A stretch of 62,037 bases of DNA, the filler included, from Streblomastix strix (Eukaryota), in NCBI GenBank assembly GCA_008636045.1. It is 3 parts of 3 records of this genome, joined end to end, with 100 filler letters (N's around TTAATTAATTAA, not from the genome) between each part and the next. Parts side by side here need not be neighbours in the genome. Positions count along the whole stretch, not along the records: positions 41,438 to 62,037 come from SNRW01000424.1; 2 more parts are not named here. One strand, 5' to 3'. Each line of letters begins with the position of its first letter. Within the stretch, counting starts at the first letter, position 1. The position numbers were made by a program, and so were the translations under genes. The notes below the pieces were generated by a model. It had not been told where the DNA came from. It made no database searches and saw nothing but the letters and a program-made list of their open reading frames with translations. Shown piece by piece: positions 4,322 through 62,009 of the stretch.

Positions 4322-7048
4322 TCAGTCCTTCCTCCTCTTCTGCAACGCGCCAACCATACCTTCGCTGATCTACGCCAGTTATTGTGTTATCTACGACGGC
4401 GCCTCTTTGAAAGTCAGCCCATTAACAGATTTCTTCAAATGCGGGTGCTTGTCACTCAGCGGGTCTTCCTTAGCTGCAGATTACTCACCTTTCTGCTGTG
4501 ATGCGCTCTGATTAGATCCATTCTGCCCACTTCCAAGCTGCGCATCGCCAGTAAGTTTTCTCTCAGCTTCTTCCTCAATAAGTCTCTTGGTCGAAGGCCC
4601 AATGTAATCCAAGTATGTCGGTGACTTGTACATCAGAGCGCCTGCACCACCTGCTTTGAGCATTCCAACAGCTGACGGTGCTGATTTCTTAAGCGCGCGC
4701 CTCTGACCGACGTTGTAATCAATCACACACGGCCCATCAAAAAACATTATCGGTTCGTCTAGCTCATCTTCTGTCATATCAGCATTCGCTTTTGTTGCTT
4801 TCTTCTTGCTACTCACATTTTAACTCACTTCATCATTTTATTAATTCTGATCTTCGCCTTCGCCTTATGTCCCTCCAATCTAATTATCCTCATTATCTTC
4901 ATCATCATCATCGCTTCCTTCTTATCCTTAAACTCCAATTTCTGCATCTCGTCTTTCACGAAGTCTTTTCAATCTCTGCTCTTCTTCTCTTTGGACGTCT
5001 TATGCGATGTCAACTGGGCTGATAACTGCTCCTTTCTGGTTCGCGATCGCCATAAGTTGAACTCCAGGTCCAGAATGTGCATGTTTGGATGATACGCCAG
5101 GTTGCTATAAAGATCGGAGGCCCTTTTTTGATGCGCCGAGCTGCAAGAAAAGCCCAAATGACGAGTCTGCTTCTTCCACGAATATCTTTCTTCGCTTCTT
5201 CTGTGAGATTGGAACAACTTCTGTCATGAATCCATCAAGCGGGCGATGAAGTTTTTGTTTTTCTTCATCGTTTTCATCTTTTTCTTATTTTTAAGCTTCA
5301 TTTGAATCACCCTCTGGTTATTCTTAGATTTCATCCAATTATTTTGATCTGTTAGTGATATTTAACAGACTATCTTACTAATTATCACTTTTATTTTCTT
5401 ATTCCTACTCTTTCTATTTATTTTATTCATCAATGTTCTTCTTCTTCTCTTTGAATTCATACCCTCCTTTCCCTTCATAAATAGCTCGCATCATATCGCC
5501 CGACATCTGCCTCGACGCTCTCTAAGCCAGGAAAGTAGCCTCAAAGTCTCTTTACACGTGTTATGGGCTGAAGTCGAACCTCTGTCTGCTTGTAAAAGCT
5601 TTTCCAGCTTTGGTTGTTCCAATTGGTCCGTTACTTGCATTTGATGCCATGTTACCATACTTATCGATTGTGAATGATGGAACATACAGTCCAGTATCAT
5701 TCAAAGAATCCGTTATCTGGTCATTTTCAGCTCCTGTTTTGTTTGTTTTTTAGCTTCGATCCGTTTTATTGAGTCTGTCAGATGAAAGCATGTTTGATTA
5801 TTAAGCACTTTTACCTTTAGACGTATTATCCATACTCCTCGAAGTCCCATCAAGCTCATTCCCCAACCCCACAATCTGATCCACATCCTAACTATCTCTA
5901 TTCTTCAATGATCTCCCCATAAATTAGTCCATGTTGTCGCATCCAGAAGATGCAGCTGCTTTTGTCAGTGGCGCTCTTAGAGTCCTGTTTCCAGTGTCTG
6001 TTGTTGGTGGTGGCAATCCAGACACTGCGATATCTGACGGGATGAACTCGAGCCTGCGAAGTGTAGGGTGCGATGGCTAATGGGGTTATTTGGTGGTGAT
6101 ATGGAATAGAATGTTGATAGTATATAGGAAAAGAAAAATATATGAGTTGATATATATTATGAATTTGGTAATAAAAGTATATTAAATGGTTTATAATTAT
6201 TTGGAATAATAATGTTATATTAACTAAATGTAAATATTTCAAGATATAATCTTATATATAAATAGATATAACAAACAAGTGTTTATGCCTAAAGATCAAT
6301 TTTTGGTACTTTGGTTTATTACTGCGAATTTAGTGTTCCAGAAAGATTAGATCCGCTGTTTGCTGTTCGGTTTGTTTAAGTAGGAGGCTCTGTTTCGTTC
6401 ATTTCAGCTTCAAGTGCTTGCTAATTCATATGATTATATAGTTAAGAATAAATATAATAAGATAATAATCGTAGAATATACTTTTTCTTGATATGGTAAA
6501 GTTCGTTTTGTAAGAACTGCTTCCAACTCATCTATGTCAACATCTCCAAATTGGTTTTCAATTGTTTTCTTAGGTACACTACCTTCCTTTACCATTCCAA
6601 ATAATCGCAGGTGTGATATGGGAACATCATAATCCTGTGGAAGATGGAATAATAAAAAAACATAATTAAAGTATGTAGAAAATCGTTATTATTATTGGCA
6701 AACGCAAAATGATTCTTTCATCCTAGACATCATCACATTTTCGAGGTGGTAATTATCATGGTAGTTTTTTTATTCAGCAACCGGGTCGATTCCTGAAGTT
6801 TTTCTGTTAATTTTGGTTTTCATAACGATTTTCATAGTAATGAAAAATTTATTAAATAAATAACGCTTTAAAATATTTTTTATTTTAAAAAATTAAACAA
6901 ACCTGCTCTTTGCAAGTGATGAAGGAGCATTAACAAGCCTCAGTTTCATTCTGCGCTCTTTCAGCATTTCAAGTCCGTTGATGGCAGCTTCCACTGGCAA
7001 GTTTCCGATATGTGCAGGACTCTCGGGTACTAAACGTGCACGAGTCAT
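4322..7048 (-). CDS. Multi-exon hypothetical protein (acidic/Gln-rich, unknown function)
   Basis: ATG at 7048 (MTRARLVPESPAHIGNLP…), several GT-AG introns between ~6100 and 6900, and a long last exon open only with TAR=Gln that ends …GALQKRRKD-TGA at 4322. It contains the listed ORF 4481-4816. Confidence 0.7.
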
Positions 7049-19100: not shown

Positions 19101-20510
19101 ACCCTGTTGATTATACTTCAATTGCTTCTGTTCTAACAAAGACAAAAATATAGGTAAATTGTTTATATAATTACGTAAATATTGAATGATAAGATGTTTA
19201 CCAACTAACCTTACAGATATTGATGTATATCACTTAATCAAGTCAGGAATAACAGGTGGATTATCAAATGTTATGCATCGAGTTAATAGAGCAGGAATTG
19301 ATTTCATAAAAAGATTATGGTATGATAATGATAATAAGAAAGTTACTGTTCTAACAACTGATCATCGAATTACTCATGTAGTTGGTGTTGATTTCAATTC
19401 ATTATACCCTAGTGTTATGTCATCAGAACCACATTAATTTATTAAATATACTAATGAAAAAATATATATGTGTGGATCATAAACAGGAAAGATTGAGGGT
19501 GATGATTAGCATTCAAAATAAACTATACTTCGAATAATTAATAGCAAAAAAAAATTTACAGCTGATGGCTAATTATTCGGTGCAGAAGTTAAAGGTCATA
19601 TTGATGAGAATTATTTGAACGATTTCATTAACTTCCCACCTATTCTAAGGAATTATGAATTCACAACTGATGAAAGAACTATTGGTAGTTATATGTATAA
19701 TCATATGAAAGATAATAAGATTAAGACAGATCAAAAATAAAGAAAGCTAACTAATCTATCATCAACGATGGGAGAATATATAGCATTTAGCTCATACTAT
19801 TTATGGTTCTTAATTGATGATTGTCATTTTATTATAGATGATGTGAAATAGATAATTCTGTTCAATAAACATGATTAATTCAATTCATTTATTAAGGAAT
19901 TTACTATAAACAGAATTGAAGCAAAATTAGATGAGAATAAGGGATAAGAATAATTCTTTAAGATAGTTATGAATGGTTCTTATGGGAGTGATGGTATGAA
20001 CACTGAGAAATATCATAAAGTAAAAATAATGAGTGAGAAGTAGACTGAAAGAGCAATTAGATCTAATGCGTTCATGGATGAGCAAAAAATATCAGAAGAC
20101 AGTTATATTGTATAAATGAACCCAGTGCATTGCAGTTGTAAAACTCCTTTATAAGTTACCTTCTTTGAATTAGATAATGCTAAATATTGGTATCTAAATT
20201 TCATATATAACTTCATATACAAATGCTTCGATAAGAATAATATACATTTTATCGAAGGAGATACTGATTCAGCTTATAATGCGATTAGTGGAAATCTTAA
20301 TGAAGATTTTACTTAGTAATTTAATGCTGTTATAAGTTATCGAGATTTTTTATAACGAGAATGCTAAGTATTTCTTCCCCACGATTAAAACAGACGTTAA
20401 TGATGAGTAGAAAATCCTTGGATTAGCAATCGAAAGACAGGGAACCGCAATGTATGCTCTTGCTCCTAAAAATTACATGATAGAAACTAACTACTGTGCT
20501 AATTCAAAGA
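16178..20510 (+). pseudogene. polB: Protein-primed family B DNA polymerase (pPolB), disrupted and 3'-truncated
   Basis: ExoI YDLET (~17990), ExoII GFNSSRFD (~18270), ExoIII YNEQD (~18680), motif A DFNSLYPS (~19390), motif B KIVMNGSYG (~19960), motif C EGDTDS (~20255). Frameshifts near 18025 and 20350; in-frame TGA at 19060, 19108 and 19183. Confidence 0.92.
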
Positions 20511-20624
20511 AGGTAACTTATAAAGGAGTTTTACAACTGCAATGCACTGGGTTCATTTATACAATATAACTGTCTTCTGATATTTTTTGCTCATCCATGA
20601 ACGCATTAGATCTAATTGCTCTTT
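20499..20624 (-). repeat. Exact inverted copy of 20048-20173 at contig end (probable amplification chimera)
   Basis: 126 nt reverse complement of an internal pPolB segment. Confidence 0.9.
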
Positions 20625-20724
20625 NNNNNNNNNNNNNNNNNNNNNNNNNNNNNNNNNNNNNNNNNNNNTTAATTAATTAANNNNNNNNNNNNNNNNNNNN
20701 NNNNNNNNNNNNNNNNNNNNNNNN
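20625..20724. other. Artificial contig linker (N44-TTAATTAATTAA-N44)
   Basis: 100-nt spacer with a stop-codon cassette, identical to the one at 41338-41437. Confidence 0.97.
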
Positions 20725-21653: not shown

Positions 21654-23883
21654 TCAAAATCGCCCATTATACCACCTTGGTTTTGGGTTGCTCTTATCTA
21701 CGTAGTAATACAATATCCTTCTTTTGACAAAGTCGGCTGAATCCTTGATATTATATCTTTATCCTTTATTAATCAGTTGTGCCTCAACTTCTTCATATCC
21801 ACCTTCTTCCTCTATTTGCTCTTTTGAACTTCGAGCAAATGAAGGAAGAGGTGGGAAAGGAGGTTAATCTGGGATTTTTGGATTTAATCTCCCTTAATAA
21901 AGCTCTTTGAGGAATCTGGATAAGTAAGACAATCCATTATCGATCTCTTCATCTTATTCTTCACCTTGACCACCTGCAGTACTTATTGCAATGACATTTG
22001 CTCTAACATATCCTTTACTCACAAGTTCAGCTTAATCTTATTCATCACCTGTATCCTGAATCAAAATAAGACATAATCTACTTTTGATTCTAACTGACAA
22101 TGATTGTAGATCATATTCCTAATTGAAGCGAGAGTTGATATTGTAGAAAGTGAGTAAGATAAGCGAATGGAGAGCGTCTGGGGTACTAATAACATCTTTA
22201 CTTATATTATAATTTCTGATTAGATCTTAAAAGAAATCAAGAGATAAAGTAATATCTAATATAGAGGAGGTTGATTCTAATTATTATTAATTATATTATT
22301 ATTATTATTAACTAATTTATTTATTTAATTGGGATTTGGATGCAAATAAAACAAGAGGACGAGTAAGATGGAGAATGAAGTTATGTTCAATCATTAGCAA
22401 TGATTTGAATTCCTTATTAAATCTTGATATTTCAGCAAGAGATAAGAATAAAGCAGTTTTAAAATCTAATAAAGCAGGAGATTGTGGAATATTGATACAC
22501 TATTAACAATTGATATCAGTAGGACAATTGAGATGAATAAGTGGACATATTCTTTCTTTCACAATCTTCATAATCTGATCTGGAATGCTTGTCTTGTAAT
22601 AATGGCTATTCAGATTTTTCTCTCCAATTAAAGGAATAGCTTTAATTAATTGTGCTGATTATTTTAATTCACTTTCAGTTTCTTCATTCTCTTATTCATT
22701 CTTGTTTCCTTTATTATTTTCTTACTTTAATTTATCGATTGCAATTAGTAAATTATTTAAATTCTTATCTATAACTTTAATATAAATATTCTTCATTTAT
22801 TAATCAGTATCTCTTTCTTTCATTATTTGAATTCTAATTCTTATTAATTGTTCAGCTTCATCTGAATATTTCTTTTGTTCCTTTTCTTCTTCAATCTTAT
22901 TCTTAATTACCAATTCAATCTAAGTATTGAGTTCAGATTATTGGAAATCATCGAAGAATCGATTAGGAAAAAATTATTCAAATAAATTTTGCATTTATAC
23001 TCCACGTTCTGCAACAAATTCAATTATATCTAAAAATATCTTCTCTATTCCACTTCTACAATCATTAATATAACTCCGAATTAATTTGAATGAATTAATA
23101 TTAAATATTCTTCTTAATTCATTTTGATCTTTTTTTTCAGTTCATTAAATATTTCTTTAAATTTTATTTCTTTCTCTTCATCATTTATTGTTTATGATTC
23201 AATAATGGAATGAATATCTTTCATTATTTAATGCAATTAATCAAATTAATATTTTGGAGCTGTTGAATATTTAATGAAAATAAAAAAATATTTAAAAAAA
23301 ATTATGAATTGAATATAAATTGGTAATTTATTTAAAATTTAAATATTTTAAAAATAAATATATTATATTAATTACCTTCTTGTACAATCTCTTGTTTTTC
23401 AGATTTGGAACCTGTTTATTATTTTGGATTAATCTATGTTTATATTTAATTCTCGGGTTGCTGTTTTATTTGATCATTTGAGTGAAGTGAAATGATTTTT
23501 GATTTGTGATTATCATTTGTTAAGATAGATTTAGTTTATGAAATTTGTTTATTAGATTATTTTGAATTTTAAGATGATTAAGTAACTATAGGTTGTTTCA
23601 GTTTATTGCCATTTAATGTCTTCACTGATTTCTTCGCTTATAGAACTTTCTATTTTGTTTGTTTCAGTAAATTCATCTGAATCTAAGATATTTTACTCTC
23701 CTTTTAAACTAATATTCATTTTGGTACTTTTCCAATATGTCCATTCTTCTCAATTGTGAACAATTCTTTATCCTTCTTTATCAATCGAACAACATCACCT
23801 TTTATAACAGCAATATAATTTGCATCTCCTTCAATTCCAGCAAAGTCAGCAATTACTTCAAAGTATTGACTTGAAATTGACAT
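21654..23883 (-). CDS. SH3 domain + Gln-rich linker + ARM-like family domain protein (probably disrupted)
   Basis: The N-terminus MSISSQYFEVIADFAGIEGDANYIAVIKGDVVRLIKKDKELFTIEKNGHIGKVPK is SH3-like and is followed by an in-frame TGA. Intron from ~23375. The C-terminus STAGGQGEEQDEEI…EQIEEEGGYEEVEAQ…RWYNGRF* matches the 10358/59518 family. Confidence 0.65.
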
Positions 23884-26998: not shown

Positions 26999-28267
26999 TC
27001 AACTGTCATGTTTCCAATCGATCATATAATGCAAATTCGGTTTCCATCGAACGCCAGTCCTCCGCTCCTCCAGCATTCCTTACATAAACAGTTGTATGTT
27101 GTCCTGAAGGAGTTATTAGAAAAGATTGTTGGTATGAACAGCTCCAGAGAGTGAAGGTGAAAGGATTAACCGAGAAGGAGGCAATTTTGATGTGATAAGC
27201 GGAGATGTTGGTGGAAGTGGTTAGATATTGAAAACATCCAACTGAATAAGATAAAAGTGTTTAATAGAAAAAGAAAATAATTATAATAAGAACACTTAAT
27301 GTAATTAAAGATTAAATCATACAACAACTGTCTGTATCCAGTTTTTATTAAGAGCATGAATAATTTCATTTTCCGATATTATAGTATTACACCTGAGGTT
27401 TATAAGTATGCAGGATGGTTTGCAATGTTAGAGCACATGTCTGGCTTATCTTTCATCCTTTGAATCGCTCCCTCCAAGTAGATATGTAGTCTCAGAAGAC
27501 TCAGGAAGAGCAACAACTATAACATCCACACCGCTCAGGAACTCAATAAGGACTTCATCCTGCGTTTTAGTTTTATCGCCATCCAAAGCAAACATTCTCT
27601 CAAAGCATTATGATATAAGGGGAAGTTTGTCTGTGCTTTCTCTCTCCTATTTATAAGCTGGAAACAAAGGCTCACCATCTTTTCGTGCGTGTCTGTGCAG
27701 TCCCCAGATCTTACCACCAAGGACATGAACACGTCTTGCCACTTCCTGTCCATTCTGTCCAACACCAAGCACACCAAAGCGAAGCTGTGAGAAATGCAGG
27801 AATTGAAGACAAGGTGCTTAAACAGAGAATGGAGCGCTTTATGAATTGGCTAACAGGAGGAACTTGTGCTGCAGCATGATGACCATACCAATAACGTACT
27901 CAGCTACTAATGCACCTTGGAAATTGTATGAATGTGACAAGATGAATGGAGGCTCAGATTCCTCATAATGTGGTGCCATCTGTAGGATCTCTTTTTGATC
28001 ACTGCTCAGACTCATAAACCATTTTAGATTGGGACAATCGCGCTTCGGTTTCTGCATCCTTTGCAATAAGCTTGGGTTTCCAAATACAACATGTGCTCGC
28101 TTCAATTGCATGGGAAATTCGGGGTTGTCCTAGTTGTTCAGAAAGATGAAGTCGAAAATAAAATTCTTGTCTAACATGCTGAGGATATCTAGCATCTATT
28201 TTGCTAATTCGTTAGACTGTTATACAAAAAGAATCAAATATTTCTTGTCCTTTTACAAATTAGACAT
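26999..28267 (-). CDS. D-isomer-specific 2-hydroxyacid dehydrogenase family protein
   Basis: VAEYVIGMVIM, Rossmann motif GVLGVGQNGQEVARR, DVIVVALPESSETTYLL, ILINLR and VFNIQPLPPTSPL. At least one intron (~27250-27320). Confidence 0.85.
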
Positions 28268-28824
28268 CGAACTCACTGCTTTTATCAAAGGCTACAATAA
28301 TAATAGTAAAATTGCAAGATTGCACTCTAATTTAAAAATCACACCACACTCCCTTTGCCTACACTAATTTATTGTTTGATCATTGTACAATATATAGCTG
28401 AAATAAAAAAATTTCTATATAATATTTGTTAAAAATAAAGTATAATACTATTTTTAGCGACAGAATTGATGTTATTTATTTTTTATAAATATTAAATCGA
28501 TTTATAAAAGTTTGAATTGGCAATATTATGAGATTATTAAATAAATTAAATTTTAAAATTAAGCAATTAAAGTTATTTATTTTTATTTATTGATTATTAT
28601 GCCGCATCGTGCGAAAAAATACAATTTTCAATTGGAGATATTTTTTCTCTGTCATATTAAGTTTAAAACAAAAAATAAGTTTAAATAATTGTTATTCAAT
28701 AATTTACCTTTTGCATAACATATAGTTTAATAGAATGGATGTACCAGTAGCAATATAAACAATTTTACTGCTTTTAATCTTAAAAACAAAGTTATATATT
28801 GAAATATCAGTAATTTAAAAGTAT

Positions 28825-41337: not shown

Positions 41338-41437
41338 NNNNNNNNNNNNNNNNNNNNNNNNNNNNNNNNNNNNNNNNNNNNTTAATTAATTAANNNNNNN
41401 NNNNNNNNNNNNNNNNNNNNNNNNNNNNNNNNNNNNN
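41338..41437. other. Artificial contig linker (N44-TTAATTAATTAA-N44)
   Basis: Same spacer as 20625-20724. Confidence 0.97.
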
Positions 41438-41444
41438 GTCCAGA

Positions 41445-42118
41445 AGCGAGAGGACACCACTGTTCTCGTAGTAAAGAGCAGGAATTTGGTATTTCTCAAA
41501 CATGATCTCAGTCATTTTCTCGCGGTTGGTCTCCGGATTCAGAACTGGTTCGGATATTAATATGGGAAACTCATAGGAGTTAACATGAAGGATGTTGGAA
41601 AAGGTGTAATTCTAAACAAATAATAATTTTAGTTAAAAAAATTAATTTAATTTACAGATAATAATAATATATGTAAATCATACCCATATTTTCTCCATCT
41701 CTTCCCAGTTGTTCACATTTCCGCGCTCAATTGGATAGTGCAGATTCATATTGTCACACAGACTAAATGCATCATCTCCAATCTTATAGTCTTTCTCATT
41801 CTATTCAATAATTTAAGGAAATACTGATCTTGGTTTGTCTTCACCCGCCATACCAACTTTCATTATCCCTGATCCGTTATCCAGAACAATAGATTTTATA
41901 TCCCCATTTTAATCCCGGATGTATCTATGCTCAATTTTCATAGAGGTAATACGAACTGACGCTCTGCTGTTCTTCATCTATTGAGTCACTGCCTGTTAAA
42001 CACCAACAAAGGAATTCTACTGTTTGATTGATGGATGTTTGTTATTTCTGTAAATGGATTGTTGTATGTGATGAGTTACATACTGCTGATGGAAGCCAGG
42101 ATCTTTGGGATAGTGCAT
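41445..42118 (-). CDS. Actin-related protein, N-terminal part (truncated at contig start); near-identical to the actin module at 52728-53291
   Basis: [25 protein letters not shown]…[18 protein letters not shown]|intron|…[18 protein letters not shown]. Confidence 0.8.
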
Positions 42119-49418: not shown

Positions 49419-50065
49419 TCAGTCAACCTCTTCCATTTCATTCTATTCACCTTCTGCTGCTCCACCTCCTGTTGATTCATGTGGAGGAAGATCTGCTGCA
49501 ATATCTCCTGTATCATCAATTGAAAGTCCTAATTTAATCATTCTATATATTCTAGCTGAGAATGATGCTGAATCTTCATGTGAGAAACCTGAAGTGAGAA
49601 GAGCTGTTTCATATAACATCAAAACTAAATCTTTTAATGTTGCATCAGCTGCATTGCCCCGCTTCTTACGCAATTCTGCAATGATAGCATGATCTGTGTT
49701 AATTTCCATAGTATTCTCTGGTTGAATGTATGAGAATGAAGATGCATCACGTAATGCTTGTGCTTTCATAATACGTTCTATATTCGCACTCCATCCATAT
49801 TCATTAGTTACAAGACAGCATGGTGAATCATCGACGCGCATTTATACAGCTACTTTCTCCACTTTCTCTCCAAGAATATCTTTCATTACTTTGCAAAGAC
49901 TTTCATTTGCTGCTTTCAATTCTTCTTTTCTTCTTCAACTTTTGGTTCATCTTCTTCTCATTCTTTTTTCTTTTCTTCATCTTTTTTCTCATCTTTTTCT
50001 TTTCTTTTTCTCTTCTTCATCTTCCATTTCCTTCTCAGCCGTCTTCCTTGTCTATAATTCAACGA
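49419..50065 (-). pseudogene. HSP90: Cytosolic Hsp90 fragment (5'-truncated, middle domain deleted)
   Basis: SPCCLVTNEYGWSANIERIMKAQALRD…LYETALLTSGF…RIYRMIKLGL…GEQNEMEEVD*. The charged linker is joined directly to the C-terminal region. Confidence 0.9.
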
Positions 50066-51122
50066 ATTAAGTAGTTTAATTATGTTTTAAAACTAAAATT
50101 AAATAAAATAGAATAAAGATGAATAAGAAATATGTAAATAAATCATAAATGTAATAAAACACTCATCAAATTCTATTATGATTTTAAAATAACAGTATAT
50201 AAATATTGAAACTGGCAAAATGTTATTTTTTTAAAATATTTATAATAAAAATTTGATCATTTACCCAATGGACGGCTAGGAAGTTGAAAATAAAATTTTT
50301 CTAAATTTTTCAACATATTAAATGGAATATAAAATTAGTAATTATTTATGTGAATTTTATAATAATATATAATCAAAAATGATTTTACAATTTCTAATAA
50401 ATTGCATGTGTGAATCAAGCATAAAATTGTTTTTATTAGTGAAAAAAATATTTCTTTCGTTAGCTTTATATACTTTACAATTTACAATATCATAATGATA
50501 ATTTAAATGAAAAGATATAAAAAGATTAAATTAATATTCATAAAATATATAAATATCACTAATTAAAAAATTCAATTTAATATTTTTTCGTGAGATATTT
50601 CTCCATAACGCTCTATACGATTTTTGTAATATAATAAAATTAAATGTAAATTGTTTCAATAAATAGATATATATTTGTCATATTTCTAGTTAACGTCGCA
50701 CCTAAAGCCATTTAGAAAAAAATACTGCTTTTTTTAAAAAATATTCCGTAAGAGACGTAAACAAATTAAATTTTTAAATTATAATTTTAATTTTACTTAA
50801 AATTATATATTAAGTTCAATTATTTTAGTTACATTAAAAATTATCAATTTTTTATTTAATAAAATTTGGATTAAATTTTTTTTTTTTTAGAAAAAACGCC
50901 ATATTTCTCTTCGACTCTCTATACGTTTTTTTTATTGTCTTTTAAATGTTTCTTATATTAATATATATTATTTATTTTTATTATTATTATTGCTGGTTAG
51001 CGTCGATTGTAAACACGAAAAGCCAGCTCCATATGCCGATGAAATCGGTTATTGCTAATGCAAAGTAGATGAAAAAATAAATTTATTTTTGCTTCACCAA
51101 CTTCGTTGGCGGGCATAAATGC

Positions 51123-51733
51123 TCACTGAGGCTTAATATCTCCACCAGCAAGTTTTCCAATAACGTCAATATTTAGTTCTGATTGCATGGAGCTATCATC
51201 AAATATAATTCTAACAAACGCATCACATAAATGATGCGTCATTGGTATAAATGATACTTTAGCAGGATCAGGATATGCTCCTGTTCCAATGAATTGTTTG
51301 ATATAATTTTAATTCTATGTTGGACATTAGTTGTATCAACTATTCCATTAGTCAAATTTCATATCAAATTCACTAAATTATAAGATCTTGAACCTGCATT
51401 TGAATAGTTATAGTCTCTCATGAATGAATTTTTAGTAGATAATTTTCATGCAAGCATATATTTGTCAGGATAAAGTGTTCTAATAACTTTGCTTTCACCA
51501 TGCAATACAGTTAGATATAATAAATTAGAAGTTTTATATTAATCTTATTTATCGTGAAATCCATAGAAATTACATTTTTCATCAATATTCAAGTTTTCAA
51601 TTGTAAGAGAATGATATAGATCTGATGCGCACTAACAACATCTTAATCAACGAAACAATCAAACACTTATCCATTAGTTGCATAAGTTAACGCATTATAT
51701 GGTTATGGAATAACATTATCCTAATCAATAAAT
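51123..51733 (-). pseudogene. Candidate major capsid protein C-terminal fragment of a Polinton-like virus
   Basis: Intron-less, frameshifted ORF FIDQDNVIPQPY…FDCFVDQDVVSA…KYMLA*KLSTKNSFMRDY…MTHHLCDAFVRIIFDD…LNIDVIG; beta-rich. The assignment rests on recalled family resemblance only. Confidence 0.4.
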
Positions 51734-52023
51734 TAAATATAAAAAACGTTTCTAGTCACTAAAAGGCATACAGAAAAGGCATTTCTTTTTGTAGTCTCGG
51801 TTTATCAGCAAATCATGATTTATTTGCAAATCAATAAATAAGGATAAAAAATCAAATAAAATCAAATGTTTTTGACTAAAATTTTTATCATAGATTAAAA
51901 TTTAAAATAGTAAAAGATAACAATACTGATGAAGATATTAATTCAGAAAAATTGTAAAACAATATAATTGAGTATAACAAAAAATAAGGAGGAAAAAACG
52001 AAAGATTTCATGTTTAAATTGAG

Positions 52024-55000
52024 TCAAACACAGTTCTATTTCACAACAGCATATCCTCTTTCTTTATATTCTTATTTTGTGATCAACCAATCCCCGAAAA
52101 CTTTCATAGAAGCCAAAATTGATCCTCCAACCCACACTGAAAATTGGCGATCTGGAGGTGCAATAATGTTGATATCAGCTGTTTTTGGTGCGAGAATCTA
52201 AAGCTCTCTATTCAATCTCTCAGCAAATCCATTGAGCATCGACGTTCCTCCAGAAATGCAGATACTTTTGAAAAGCTCGTTGCGGACTTTGGAGTCACAA
52301 TTCTGAATTGACTGAAACACCAAGTTATGAACACCAGGCATATCAAAACCAATTAAACTAGGTTTGAATATGGCTTCTGGACATCTGAATCTTTCTGATC
52401 CAATTGAAATTTCCTAACCATCAGGCATAGTATATGTCATGTCAACCAGTTTCTATGCTTTTCTTTTCTGTGATTTATAGTCCATAACAATATAGCAAAG
52501 CTTTTCTTTAATATCTTTTGCAATCTCGTAATTTAATTAAACTCCCTTTTCCAACAGTTCTCTTAAAATTGAAACAGTTACATCTCTTCCCGCCATTTCA
52601 TTTCTAAATATTCCATTTGGCTGCTTCAACCCATTATAAATCGGGACAACGCTAATTAGACAATCTCCGCTCTCAAGAACGACTCCGAATGTTCTCCCTG
52701 TTGAATAAAGCGAGAGGACACCACTGTTCTCGTAGTAAAGAGCAGGAATTTGGTATTTCTCAAACATGATCTCAGTCATTTTCTAGCGGTTGATCTCCGG
52801 ATTCAGAACTGGCTCAGATATTAATATGGGAAATTCATAGGAATTAACATGAAGGATGTTGGAAAAGGTATAATTCTAAATAATATAAAAATAATTATAA
52901 TTAAAAGAAATAATTTAATTTACAGATAATAATAATATATGTAAATCATACCCATATTTTCTCCATCTCTTCCCAGTTGTTCACATTTCCGTGCTCAATT
53001 GGATAGTGCAGATTCATATTGTCACAAAGACTAAATGCATCATCTCCAATCTTATAGTCTTTCTCATTCTACTCTATAATTTAAGGAAACACTGATCTTG
53101 GTTTGTCTTCACCCGCCATACCAACTTTCATTATCCCTGATCCGTTATCCAGAACAATAGATTTTATATCCCCATTTTAATCCCGGATGTATCTGTGCTC
53201 AATTCTCATAGAGGTAATACGAACTGACGCTCTGCTGTTCTTCATCTATTGAGTCACTGCCTGTTAAACACCAACAAAGGGATTCTACTGTGTAATTAGT
53301 GAAGCTGTATATTACTGATCTGGAGAAGGTGGCTATGAATCAGGGGAAGGAGGAGGTAATGGAGATAATGATTAGGAATGTTATTATTATTATTATGATT
53401 AGGAATGTTATTATTATTAGGAATATTGTTATTATTATTATGGTTAGGAATATTATTATTATTATTTATGCAATGGAGTTGAAGGAGAAGGAGGAGCAGA
53501 AGGAGGTCCTGATGGAGGACCCAATGATAATTACGAATTTGTTGGAGAAGGAGGATTTGAAGGAGGTCCCAAATCAGGCGTTGTTGATTGACGCAATTTT
53601 TGTTGTTATTTTGGTGAAGGCGAAGGTTTGCGTAAAGAAGCAATTTTTGAAGCTGGTGGAGAAGATGATTATGAAGAATGTTTTTATTAGTAAGGCAACT
53701 GTTTCTAAGGAAATAACATTTTATTATTTCTTGATTTAAGTTCGGCATTAAGTTGATTGATGTCCTCTAAAGTATTTTGAGGTTTGTTAATTTTATATTA
53801 TTGTTATACTATTACTTATTTATTTTTATCTATTGTATCTTTTTATTATTGCTATACAATTACCTATTTATTATTATCAATTGAATCTTTTTATTATTGC
53901 TATACAATTACCTATTTATTTTTATCTTTTGTTTCTATTTATTATTTTTCAATCTTATTCTCAATTTTTTATTCTTTATCTTTTGTCTCTATTTATTATT
54001 TTTCAATCTTATTCTCAATTTTTTATTCTTTGTCATTTGTTTCATGTTATTTAAATTTCTTATTCATTTCCTGATTTGTTTCTTTTTCATCTTTGTATCT
54101 TTCAATTATGGACACAAGTTACATTGTATCACTTTGGAGAAGTTATTATATCGAAGGTCTTTATGATGGATTCTTATTGAAATATGTAATAGTAATTATA
54201 AAAAATAATGACTATAATAACAAAAAATAAATATTAAGATTATTGCATACTAAATTCATCATTGATTCCAACATAAGTTTCAAATCACCATAAATTAATT
54301 CAGGAAAATGTTTCATTTTCCCATTTTAAATGTTTTTAACAGTTTCATTTTAAGTCAAACCTTAGAAAGGATGAAACCCAGTTACAATTTCGACTATTAT
54401 AACACCAACTTACCAAATATTGCTTTCAGAAGTCATTCTATGATTGTATTATAAAACGAATAAATACAAAAGAGATTATTCTAAGGAAATAATAATAATA
54501 AATTATTTGAAACTTTTCCTGCTAATATGCTTCGGGTGGAATGTAAGTCTAGCAAGCTATATTTTAAGATGAACTAAAATCTGCAATATGAATATTCAAA
54601 TGTAAATTCGTAAATTGAATAATTAATATCGTAAAAATAATATAAACCGATTTTAACATTTTCATCTTAATCAAAATATATATTTTCAGGCTTTAAGTCT
54701 TAATAAATGATTCCTTTTGAATGAAGTTCGTTAATGCATTTTAAAATTTAGTATCCATACAAATATCCCTTCTGCACAATTAAAAACATAAAAATTATGT
54801 TAAAATTATGAATGAGTTAAAATAATTGGAGTAACTCTAAAATTTAATATAAACCATTTTCCTATCATTTCCAGTCATTGTTTTCAATTCATTTCCCATC
54901 ATATTACGCAGATTTCCATTGGGACAATACTCAAGTACAAGGCATATATCTTGTTCATGCGGGAATGTTTCAATCAAATTAACTAAATGTTTGGATTTAG

Positions 55001-55866
55001 CGAGATTCAAATTTTTTATTTTTTCATCAGCAAACTTTTTTTATTCAATGGTAGTATATTGAAGCCTTTTGATGATAACTGATTCTTCTTTTGACTTCTT
55101 TTTTAAATACATACGAAGGATTGAGTCCGAAGAATTAGCTTGAAGTTCTTCAATTAGCACATCTAAAAATATATAAAAATACGATGAAAAAGAATAAGAG
55201 AAAAAATTATTTAATGAGATGCAAACAATCATTTAAAGTATGCATTGAAGAAGAAATTTTATCTACATTATCCTTTTAAAAAACTGATAAAGATATATTT
55301 TATGTCTTTATTGTAGCTGATTATCGTTTGGCCTATTTAAGGACTTATTATTATTTAATTTGTTATTATTGAGATTGTTTATTGATTGATTATTCGTGAA
55401 CTGAATCATTAATTGCTTATTAGTGATGTGAAGCATTTAATTATTACGTCGATGATTAAGACGTATTTGAATTTAATTAATTATTGATTTATATGTTCGG
55501 TGTCTAAACTTTAGAGCCAAGGTTTTGATCCGATGATATTTGAATTGGGTGAATTTGATTCATACTATTATGCAATTTATGAGATTGAGCAGGTGTTAAT
55601 TAGCTTGTTTATGATGCAAAGTCATATTTGTTTTCGATGGTGGCAGTGATTGTTTATTCCCCAACCAGTGTTCCATTTGTTTTTAATTATGCATTTTCAG
55701 CGTCTTTCTCAGATAAGAAACTCACAAATGCTCTTCCTCCATCTTTTCCCAAAGGCGCGTTTTTCATATTTATTTCAATCGCTCCATAAGGCTTAAATAA
55801 CTTATTCAGCTGAAAGTATGTAATGAATCCTTATGTCCAGCTGATATTCAAGCCAATATGTGACAT
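52024..55866 (-). CDS. RRM + degenerate Ser/Thr kinase + repeat stalk + Pro-rich linker + actin-fold fusion protein
   Basis: RRM ([16 protein letters not shown]) ~55630-55866; kinase exons ~54130-55163 ([46 protein letters not shown]). One exon (~54173-52952) runs in frame from the kinase end into [11 protein letters not shown]. Actin continues after intron 52876-52951 to …[10 protein letters not shown]…VVKQNCV*. Confidence 0.85.
53795..54035 (-). repeat. Coding tandem repeats in the fusion gene
   Basis: Two ~51-nt units ([17 protein letters not shown]) and three ~48-nt units (KNKQVIVQQQQKD). Confidence 0.8.
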
Positions 55867-56404
55867 TGACGCTCAATTTATATAAGAAAATAGAAATAAT
55901 AATTAAAAAAGTTAGATAATTACTATCCAAGTGATTATAACATGAATTAAGCGATATATGAGTAAGTAAATATTTATATAATATAAAATAAATTATCATT
56001 AGAATGTTATTCTGCTAAATTAGCCTACAAAATTAAAAAATATTCGTTTTCGGCGGATTAGTAGTATTTTGTATGAATTATTTATAAATAAAATAAATAT
56101 ATTACTAAGCAATAAAATTATTATTTTTTAGAGAATGTTTATCGGTTAATCCAGCGTCAGGAATAATTTTTTTTAAAAAAAATCAGTTATGAGCCCGCCA
56201 GATATGTAATTAAAATGAAATGTAAAGATAATTACTAATTTTTTTAAAAAAATGAATAAAAAATAAAAATTTGCACATAATATATAAGTCACGCGAAAAA
56301 AATAAATTAATTTTTATTTTTTAAAAAATTTAAAATACACAGCTTACATAATGTTGTAATAACATTGATAATTTTAAAATTTTTGTATGTTTAATATTTT
56401 ATTT

Positions 56405-61069: not shown

Positions 61070-62009
61070 TCCTCAATTAATAGCAACTATAAATTCTTTC
61101 TCTTCTTGAACTATGTTTCGTAATGCACACAACTGATATGATGCTCATCATCAACACTTAATGGATCTACAAACAAATCATGATAGGTTTATATTCAAGA
61201 ATTAAATCATTTTGAGTCAGATCTGGAGAAAAGAAAAGAAATGCTGGTTAAATTGGCTAAATTTAAATTTCGGAATCAGAATCAAATAAAAGAAAATTAA
61301 ATAAATACTCCAACATCGCAATGAAGTCAACAATTGAGCATATCTTGCTAAGGACTTAAATTTATCCAACTCAAAATTTTTATCTTCATCATCGCACAGT
61401 CCATCAAACTTAACTGATCAAATGAATGGAAATCCTCAGAGAATTAATATTAGAGAAAAAAATAATAGAGAGAAAAAGAATGCGAAAGTGAAAATGATAA
61501 ATTCAATTTGAGTATCTTTTGGAATGATTATGAAGAATTAAAGATAGAAAAAATTGATAATATTTCTTATTGACCATTGACAATAATTTCATAAGTTAAT
61601 AATGAAAATTTGAATGATAAAGATAACTAATAGTAATATTTATATTCAATACTAATTTAGAATAAATGATTATAATATAATAGTAAGCTTATAAATACAT
61701 TATCGTGCTTAAAGACGTACGATGCAATCCCAGCATACAGCCTCTCATTCACAGCGATTCCAATCAGAATCATAACTGGGTCAAGAAAACCCTTCGCAAA
61801 TTCAGCAGTTGCATCTAATGTGAAAGTTGCTCTCAAATTGCTGCTTTCTTCACATACAATATTGAGGTTAGGCCAGACGGAATGAATTAAACCTATCATG
61901 ATTTGTTTGTAGATCCATTAAGTGTTGATGATGAGCATCATATCAGTTGTGTGCATTACGAAACATAGTTCAAGAAGAGAAAGAATTTATAGTTGCTATT
62001 GATTGAGGA
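61070..62009. repeat. 122-nt inverted duplication (61070-61191 vs 61888-62009)
   Basis: Reverse-complement match with about one mismatch, close to the contig end. Confidence 0.85.
61697..61910 (-). pseudogene. Inositol monophosphatase / 3'(2'),5'-bisphosphate nucleotidase family fragment
   Basis: WPNLNIVCEES and TLDATAEFAKGFLDPVMILIGIAVNERLYAG resemble the GEE and DPLDGTxEF…VLIGIA motifs, with an internal deletion. Confidence 0.6.

Follow-up and report, generated by a model that had tools for sequence, protein, structure and literature searches.

To our knowledge, actin almost never tolerates fusion to other domains, and the described cases, POTE-actin and filactin, keep a near-conventional actin. 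In both the primate POTE-actins (POTEE/POTEF) and Dictyostelium filactin, a whole actin fold forms the C-terminus of a long lineage-specific protein; the filactin domain is reported to have high homology to conventional actin, and that of POTE to be derived from beta-actin by retrotransposition (PMC8292509, PMC2441452; excerpts). Arp11 of dynactin, a free subunit, lacks actin residues 38–57 and is predicted to bind pointed ends only and not to polymerise (PMC2174220; excerpt). With regard to kinases, Giardia has expanded, mostly inactive Nek kinases, whose inactive members have lost K72, D166 or D184 and bear ankyrin repeats or coiled coils (PMC3218828; excerpt). UHMK1/KIS, which phosphorylates splicing factors, carries an RRM-fold domain in the same chain as its kinase (PMC10033318; excerpt).

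The locus described here belongs to Streblomastix strix, a termite-gut flagellate that reads TAA and TAG as Gln (NCBI table 6), with TGA as its sole stop, and lies in a 62,037-nt stretch of DNA (the window). Its gene model encodes, in order, an RRM, a Gln-rich linker, a NEK-like kinase, a repeat stalk, a Pro/Gln linker and an actin fold. In contrast to POTE-actin and filactin, the actin-like domain stands behind an RRM and a kinase fold, is intron-bearing, has diverged by 50% and is without the D-loop and the catalytic residues; with only 50% identity and another front end, it is not a fusion of the near-conventional type. The locus shares with Arp11 a deleted subdomain-2 loop (38–47 here vs. 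38–57 in Arp11) and an altered pointed-end face. However, Arp11 is not fused to a kinase, identity is low to 5adx_J, which we take to be the Arp11 chain of dynactin (23% identity, Z 30.5, vs. 48% for actin), and dynactin-specific subunits are missing from Monocercomonoides exilis, so that the likeness is at best convergent. As in Giardia, the kinase comes from a large lineage-specific metamonad NEK-like family with degenerate members and mobile accessory domains, but its K/D/D residues are retained and its partners are an RRM and an actin fold. In UHMK1 the kinase comes first and no actin domain is known, so both the order and the actin fold differ; this likeness is one of description.

The preliminary description of this DNA did not recognize the architecture from any described protein, and our searches agree. 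No relevant description was found in the literature, and none of 392 proteins examined had kinase and actin domains together. The full-length product was not among the matches of protein searches. A long-protein search with an exon 5–6 query, which is of low complexity, scored 7,970 candidates with none at E 1e-5; metagenome contigs contained no exact match to a 32-nt pattern, and a related-locus scan returned 11 loci at 30–46% identity, none close. No fused orthologue from another organism thus appeared in the protein, metagenome or related-locus searches, and the fused form is known from one genome, as one fused copy, read from DNA.

Gene model and continuity of the reading frame

Seven exons on the minus strand give a single frame of 3,399 nt (1,132 aa) in the model built from DNA, with a start codon in exon 1 and one terminal TGA in exon 7:

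55227..55866, minus strand: exon 1, RRM (aa ~6–78) and Gln/Ser/Asn-rich linker, ending in MHTLND; includes M208, a possible alternative kinase start
55163..55226, minus strand: intron 1, 64 nt, GT-AG, from the RRM exon to the kinase
54855..55162, minus strand: exon 2, kinase N-lobe; QANSSD in place of the Gly loop, VIIK lysine kept, alphaC Glu replaced by Lys
54648..54771, minus strand: exon 3, catalytic loop YQDLKPEN; HR replaced by YQ, D/K/N kept
54514..54580, minus strand: exon 4, DFS for DFG with one residue missing ahead of it; activation/P+1 loop (AAGT) deleted in frame
54251..54437, minus strand: exon 5, kinase C-lobe, SNIW for SDIW
52952..54172, minus strand: exon 6, 1,221 nt; kinase subdomain XI, charged 54-/48-nt tandem repeats, Pro/Ser/Gln linker and the N-terminal part of actin, with the phosphate-1 loop and the D-loop deletion
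52024..52875, minus strand: exon 7, remaining actin fold (Q137S, D154E, H161S, 201–204 deleted) and TGA

All six introns are GT-AG and 64–83 nt long; retention of intron 1 would end the frame at a TGA at 55150 (a 240-codon frame). Pfam identified RRM_1 (E 1.9e-8), a kinase (E 5e-10, exons 2 and 3) and Actin in both exon 6 (E 2e-17) and exon 7 (E 2.2e-83), and an NCBIfam profile search gave nothing above cut-off. Every motif quoted in the preliminary description was located at its place on the minus strand under table 6. Its claim of one spliced gene agrees with the continuous frame and the GT-AG introns, with splicing into one transcript being a prediction from DNA.

It had further been claimed that kinase subdomain XI and the actin phosphate loop share an exon and frame without a TGA, and this was confirmed by coordinates: NPSQRPSIQQLL (54172–54137) and LDNGSG (53152–53135) lie in the same frame of exon 6, and neither a stop nor an intron-like stretch interrupts the path from the kinase end to the actin start. 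The absent stop alone is modest evidence, because 1.2% of 5,000 draws from a first-order Markov null left the 288-codon linker free of an in-frame TGA, and the window has 27 frames of such length among its 2,861 stop-to-stop frames. Stronger evidence for continuity comes from the lack of intron-like composition and from repeat periods. Specifically, none of the GT-AG candidates in exon 6 (0/156) or exon 1 (0/32) matched the actual introns in composition (T ≥ 0.49, GC ≤ 0.18), and the stalk repeats that scored best recur every 54, 48 and 45 nt, each a multiple of three. The 200-nt bins upstream of M752, the Met encoded by the ATG at 53245, are also coding-like (GC 0.31–0.40, vs. 0.19–0.22 in the AT-rich DNA before the gene start).

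The kinase fold and the RRM

The degeneracy first reported for the kinase (no Gly-rich loop, YQD, DFS, SNIW) was found throughout, and two further lesions were added, namely the alphaC Glu to Lys change and the loss of about 9–10 residues from the activation loop. Catalytic or regulatory invariant columns were changed at 14/25 positions vs. 3/54 for other invariants (Fisher p 1.4e-6), with a motif set that was picked after the alignment was viewed; the altered elements are the Gly loop, alphaC Glu, HR, DFG Gly, P+1 loop and alphaF Asp. The same columns were unchanged in five paralog controls (0/25 in four, 0/19 in one), and the kinase region contains neither frameshift nor stop. Taken together, this contrast, the intact controls and the open frame suggest a loss pattern that fits selection for the fold and not decay.

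Whether this is a pseudokinase, as it had been called, depends on the definition. The formal rule requires that one or more of the VAIK lysine, HRD aspartate and DFG aspartate be lost (K72/D166/D184; PMC3218828, excerpt). The triad is retained in full (K245, D341, D358) and the label therefore falls in this sense, whereas in the functional sense (fold kept, ATP-binding and regulatory motifs lost) the sequence agrees with it. Since K, D and D are retained, some residual kinase activity is conceivable. The closest kinases, as best matches among 1.84 billion representatives, were NEK/CAMK-labelled paralogs from S. strix itself (38–52% identity).

The RRM fold is supported by its profile (RRM_1, 34.5 bits vs. 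a cut-off of 20.7) and by PDB matches to TIA-1, Sxl and ELAV. Its RNP1 reads GRAFVSF, vs. GYGFVSF in relatives, with one Phe kept and Arg at the other aromatic site, and its RNP2 (LNISW) has no aromatic when judged against what we take to be the consensus position. The RNA-binding domain of the preliminary description thus stands as a fold, while RNA binding is doubtful because RNP1 is altered and the RNP2 aromatic is missing.

The actin-like domain and its origin

The D-loop, which had been noted as about 10 aa shorter than in canonical actin, carries a deletion of exactly 10 residues (actin 38–47), and ESGDC indeed stands in for DSGDG. Residues 201–204 are also deleted and R62C and G63D changes are present, so the D-loop and subdomain-4 polymerisation contacts of conventional actin are lost. 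The D-loop is described as the main intra-strand contact in actin, with Q137 and H161 named as catalytic candidates (PMC7221352; excerpt). Here, the catalytic sites read Q137S, D154E and H161S, a departure from the conventional-actin set. The nucleotide loops are kept (DNGSG, SGD and GGT for phosphate-1, phosphate-2 and adenosine) and are identical to Monocercomonoides exilis actin at 19/28 positions. Without the D-loop, residues 201–204, Q137 and H161, the domain is probably non-hydrolysing and non-polymerising, with an Arp11-like anatomy; the earlier suggestion of a non-polymerising module is in this way upheld as probable.

Erosion differs between the two faces of the domain, for which we used interface residue sets that we assume to be representative. 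The pointed face is identical to Monocercomonoides actin at only 8/37 positions, with 14 gaps, vs. 184/370 (~50%) overall (p 0.0004). The barbed face (19/42, p 0.62) is kept no better than the rest of the domain. AlphaFold2 predicted an actin-like fold (pLDDT 83, pTM 0.82; 112-row alignment) whose top structural match was actin (Z 38.0, rmsd 3.2, 333 aligned, 48% identity). Next-best matches included trypanosomatid doublet-microtubule actin-like chains (Z 36.6 and 35.2) and nuclear Arps (Z 32–36); Arp1 and Arp2 did not appear as separate rows. A complex prediction of the domain with an oxymonad-type actin (P0293) scored 0.05 vs. a mark of 0.34, a level that speaks neither for nor against binding.

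The phylogeny suggested earlier was built from actins. In this tree of actins without Arps, the query pair and 11 oxymonad-type actins split from 31 other actins with 100/100 support, on a very long branch. All six motif states considered, which were chosen from the query itself, are common to the query and oxymonad actins. The Arp4, Arp8 and remodeller rows showed 18–28% identity and lower Z, with one PBAF chain at 32% as the exception; nuclear Arp chains stood at 24–26%, and a comparison with 48% for actin gave no sign of membership in Arp4/5/6/8. An ESM Atlas search returned actin-family clusters only. The domain is most likely derived, judging from these comparisons, from an oxymonad conventional actin and not from a nuclear Arp. 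Of the two links that the preliminary description proposed, to the cytoskeleton or to chromatin, the latter is weak because of the grouping with oxymonad actins and the low nuclear-Arp identity.

Copies of the actin block and competing readings

Part of the actin-coding region is repeated in the window, a feature that the preliminary description had missed:

52708..53297, minus strand: shared block of the fused copy, 95% DNA identity to copy 2, with its upstream edge ~52 nt before the ATG at 53245 (M752)
41444..42029, minus strand: copy 2, a truncated actin-like block at a contig tip with the same intron (NCBI KAA6401220.1, partial)

Copy 2 lies 11 kb from the fused copy, has no kinase upstream and has its frame closed by a TGA 50 codons ahead of the same ATG, which shows that the actin block also exists unfused; the upstream flanks of the two copies do not align. 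A third copy (KAA6382465.1) is on a 5,618-bp contig. The copies are young (dS 0.12), and between the fused copy and copy 2 the dN/dS ratio proposed earlier as a check was 0.09 (10 synonymous vs. 4 non-synonymous changes over 153 codons), which indicates purifying selection on the actin coding block. A few motif-like fragments upstream of copy 2 were considered as a decayed kinase and rejected, given that tblastn with 14 paralogs, a paralog HMM (--max) and Pfam were all empty. We also dropped the near-identity of the 52 nt before M752 as a sign of coding constraint, because identity also covers the opening 41 nt of the shared intron. A C-terminal-only Hsp90 fragment 2 kb from the locus indicates that partial duplicates occur on the same contig.

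The S. strix assembly is described as fragmentary and derived from a single cell (PMC10703272; excerpt). In run X1, which like X2 may be the source sample, 96% of the region's sampled words were present; none of the three runs listed was an RNA run, which is neutral as to expression. Contigs of both runs were short pieces and, among the matches listed, none spans the linker-actin junction. Unitig depth was 54 for the exact fused-copy actin vs. 19 for the variant. Elsewhere in the window, inverted duplications of ~126 nt occur near two other contig tips, and such duplications are typical of whole-genome amplification.

We consider it reasonably probable that one fused protein is made. Unlikely, though deserving attention, is expression of the actin-like gene alone from M752, with the in-frame link being a recent by-product of a duplication into the low-complexity tail of an upstream RRM-kinase gene and the long form rare or functionless. 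NCBI annotates the actin part only, as a stand-alone protein (KAA6401222.1, 381 aa, starting MKNSR at M752) that omits the kinase; we infer that this split is gene-finder output and not transcript-based. In copy 2 the shared block likewise reaches 52 nt ahead of the ATG, next to a flank of unrelated sequence. The youth of the copies, the nearby Hsp90 fragment, the number of equally long frames and a TGA-only code that makes such a link tolerable are consistent with this reading. However, the bins upstream of M752 do not resemble pre-gene DNA, and the upstream kinase gene has neither a stop of its own nor an intron-like exit. It is very improbable that amplification or assembly created the junction near 53297 as a chimera of an RRM-kinase gene and an actin-like gene from elsewhere, although the nature of the assembly, the inverted duplications, the lack of a bridging piece among the matches listed, and the way in which two distinct flanks join one block at a common point, where a short overlap is nearly identical, are in favour of this. 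The junction lies within a contig, in frame and coding-like on both sides, whereas copy 2 occupies a contig tip and, should one of the two be an artefact, would be the better candidate; the word coverage and unitig depth also argue against a chimera.

If the fused protein is made, its actin-like domain could be a monomeric structural subunit or docking module and not a filament cap, for instance in axonemal/axostylar dynein complexes, with profilin-/WH2-type partners or in a nuclear complex. We regard this as doubtful. The same evidence from frame and selection, the retained nucleotide-binding loops, the doublet-microtubule and nuclear Arp chains as next-best matches and the barbed face without special conservation are compatible with it; M. 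exilis is also described as having neither myosin nor dynactin-specific subunits (PMC6759080; excerpt), and filament roles may thus be limited. On the other hand, the deletions concentrate on the pointed-end face, as expected for a terminal subunit, nuclear Arp chains are only distantly similar, and M. exilis retains its own ARP4 and ARP6 (PMC6759080; excerpt).

Our preferred reading, which we hold tentatively, is an in-frame chimera of RRM, eroded kinase, linker and actin that would act as one non-catalytic scaffold, with the actin domain at or capping pointed ends. The continuous frame with its splice sites, the selective loss of kinase catalytic and regulatory motifs around a kept structural core, and an actin fold that keeps its phosphate loops but has lost the D-loop and carries Q137S/H161S along with erosion of the pointed-end face are observed directly. 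The protein would be translated as one chain without kinase or ATPase activity, and its actin-like domain, presumably unable to polymerise, may bind the terminal actin subunit through its barbed-end cleft by analogy with Arp11. The kinase fold, Pro-rich linker and degenerate RRM could then serve as docking surfaces for proteins or RNA. A more specific version is improbable: a double pseudoenzyme in which a dead NEK-like kinase and a non-hydrolysing, D-loop-less actin co-evolved as a pointed-end cap that holds RNA or RNP to actin through its RRM, independently of Arp11 and in a lineage without myosin or dynactin, the unfused copies being partial duplicates, alleles or artefacts.

If the scaffold reading is correct, a chain of kinase fold and actin with both active sites eroded and the actin trimmed on only one face would be a new filament cap or tether, with a bearing on actin use in oxymonads, whose model species is without myosin and dynactin. 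The chimera likely arose by domain shuffling within the expanded S. strix NEK-like kinase family. A single-stop code and a shuffling kinase family can yield long chimeric frames that are split by public annotation. Among the public models of the kinase paralogs, an FKBP domain is found at the N-terminus of one and a tandem kinase in another, which indicates that the family swaps partners.

Continuity of the fused reading frame

In the AT-rich DNA of this window, where TAA and TAG are read as Gln, the RRM, kinase and actin-like domains are predicted to be encoded by one spliced gene:

55866-52024, minus strand: RRM-kinase-actin gene, 7 exons, six GT-AG introns of 64-83 nt

It lies on the last of the window's three contigs (41438-62037, 20,600 bp; N-linkers at 20625-20724 and 41338-41437), whose DNA is matched by the S. 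strix NCBI proteins KAA6401220.1 and KAA6401222.1. PMC10703272 describes the assembly as single-cell and fragmentary (50,889 contigs, N50 5.18 kb).

The modelled product has 1,132 aa and one TGA, which is terminal, and its Pfam domains follow the exons in the order RRM_1, protein kinase and actin, bearing out the single frame claimed in the preliminary description. Kinase subdomain XI and the actin phosphate loop do share one TGA-free exon (exon 6; 1,221 nt), together with 54- and 48-nt tandem repeats and a Pro/Ser/Gln tract. The lack of TGA in the 288-codon linker is by itself modest evidence, since its null probability is 1.2% and frames of this length make up 27 of the 2,861 in the window. 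The T-rich composition of true introns was found in none of the GT-AG candidates of exon 6 (0/156) or exon 1 (0/32), and composition is coding-like right up to the actin block, so that the kinase gene has no visible stop before the TGA of the actin. The fused reading frame is real and unusual.

At intron 3 (54581-54647, minus strand), the expected acceptor AG is apparently TG; splicing would instead use the AG located 3 nt further along, which costs one codon but leaves the frame intact. Paralogous kinases carry one residue more before DFG than the fused kinase; the acceptor shift appears to explain this loss.

Erosion of the three domains

The RRM scores above the Pfam cut-off, with matches to the RRMs of TIA-1, Sxl and ELAV, but two of the three aromatic residues usual in RRMs are absent, which makes predicted RNA binding the weakest step of the model.

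The nearest relatives of the kinase are S. strix kinases labelled NEK or CAMK (38-52% identical). We aligned it with 12 paralogs and scored columns conserved in at least 90% of them. Changes affected 14/25 catalytic or regulatory columns, a textbook-based set picked after a first kinase alignment had been viewed, vs. 3/54 other columns (p = 1.4e-6). They include the Gly loop, alphaC Glu to Lys, HR to YQ, DFGLA to DFSSS, deletion of AAGT and alphaF Asp to Asn; no catalytic position was changed in five paralog controls. Unlike under neutral decay, the core is spared, and the kinase fold is thus probably under selection. The label of pseudokinase holds for the motif losses but not formally, since K245, D341 and D358 are kept and the K72/D166/D184 rule defines inactive kinases among Giardia Neks (PMC3218828). 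The domain is best called catalytically eroded and is probably inactive. Public models of 12 paralogs scanned for domains include one tandem kinase and one with an N-terminal FKBP domain (KAA6371754.1), another unusual fusion in the same kinase family.

The actin-like domain shares 184 of 370 residues with the actin of Monocercomonoides exilis, and its predicted fold is that of actin (pLDDT 83). The top structural match among 48,161 chains was actin (Z 38.0, rmsd 3.2, 333 aligned, 48% identity), with Arps at no more than 32% identity. A tree of 44 sequences was built from both full copies, 11 actins of oxymonad type and every second sequence of 61 other actins, without Arps. In it, a 100/100 branch set the domain together with the oxymonad group, albeit on a very long branch and within a group whose unnamed members were selected by motifs shared with the query. 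The shorter D-loop noticed earlier was confirmed: residues 38-47 are deleted, as are 201-204, and R62/G63 are altered. Using residue sets that we take to represent the two faces, identity was 8/37 on the pointed face (p = 0.0004 vs. the rest) and 19/42 on the barbed face (p = 0.62). The nucleotide loops are retained, with Q137 changed to S, D154 to E and H161 to S, all named catalytic candidates of actin (PMC7221352).

Loop loss here resembles that of Arp11, which lacks actin residues 38-57 and is predicted to bind pointed ends only (PMC2174220). Such a resemblance would be convergent, since M. exilis, according to PMC6759080, lacks dynactin-specific subunits and myosin while retaining ARP4 and ARP6. 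The predicted product is an actin-fusion protein, a known kind, in this case combined with an eroded kinase and an RRM. Known parallels are POTE-actin and filactin (PMC8292509, PMC2441452), the inactive Giardia Neks, Arp11 and UHMK1 (PMC10033318). None of the 392 proteins gathered joined kinase and actin (376 matched the actin part only, 16 the kinase only), and no kinase or RRM Pfam domain occurred in the 120 matches listed of 308 long actin-bearing ones. Because actins crowded these searches, the absence of a joint match among the proteins gathered is weak evidence that none exists. No account of the architecture turned up in searches of open-access article text, in keeping with the first impression that it is undescribed.

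Copies of the actin block and competing readings

The actin block recurs twice. One copy is KAA6382465.1, on another contig (98% identical); the other lies in the window:

42029-41444, minus strand: copy 2 of the actin block, 95% identical, same intron, cut by the contig end

Both carry H73R relative to actin. Over 153 codons, copy 2 differs from the fused copy by 10 synonymous and 4 non-synonymous changes (dS 0.118, dN 0.011, p = 3e-5), so the block is under purifying selection; selection on both branches would suit a functional gene, unfused or differently fused. In X1, a sequencing run, variant unitigs differ at 6/119 bases in the actin block and at 4/113 and 7/156 in the adjacent GPN GTPase gene. 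With such similar divergence, the copies may be paralogs or alleles.

It is reasonably likely that a single fused product is translated. NCBI models the actin part alone, as a 381-aa gene from M752 (ATG at 53245), and the long fused product was absent among matches of protein searches made with the gene's parts. In copy 2, a TGA closes the frame 50 codons before the shared ATG, and no kinase remnant was left upstream. These points would suit an actin-like gene expressed on its own, its in-frame link to the neighbour being incidental, yet we consider this unlikely given the coding-like, intron-free approach to the block. The block edge (53297) lies 52 nt before M752 in coding-like DNA, which, with copy 2's contig-tip position, would suit the fused gene as duplication donor, although the selection on both branches pulls the other way. 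None of the contig pieces listed spans 53297, as a chimera would predict; X1 nevertheless contains 96% of 455 words sampled from 51900-56000, although it is possibly the assembly's own source sample. We regard the junction as very probably real and a chimera as improbable.

Our leading, still tentative, working model is that the protein would act as a non-catalytic scaffold whose terminal actin module does not polymerise. A monomeric docking role for the actin-like domain of the fused protein seems rather unlikely.

Neighboring features

58064-~59100, plus strand: GPN-loop GTPase (ATP_bind_1, E 5.8e-73), long Ser/Gln insert
49419-49934, minus strand: C-terminal part of Hsp90 (Pfam positions 354-499 of 518)
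51106-51807: high-copy repeat directly downstream of the fused gene, X1 summed contig depth 3,300-6,600, many variants
27320-28627, minus strand: D-2-hydroxyacid dehydrogenase-like gene (2-Hacid_dh_C, E 2e-10)
4325-6238, minus strand: 638-codon frame, GC 0.41, no Pfam match
20048-20173 / 20499-20624: inverted duplication of about 126 nt, 100% identical, near contig end
61070-61197 / 61883-62009: inverted duplication of about 126 nt, 98% identical, near contig end
10268-11758 and 59451-60956: paralogous 1.5-kb blocks, 70.6% identical, separate contigs

The GTPase variant unitigs suggest haplotype or paralog divergence of about 4%. The Hsp90 fragment seems to be a partial duplicate; the tested frame upstream of it showed no further Hsp90 match. 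A six-frame Pfam scan of the high-copy repeat gave nothing credible. The inverted duplications are possibly amplification fold-backs. A third, partial match to the paralogous 1.5-kb blocks lies at 21667-22049.
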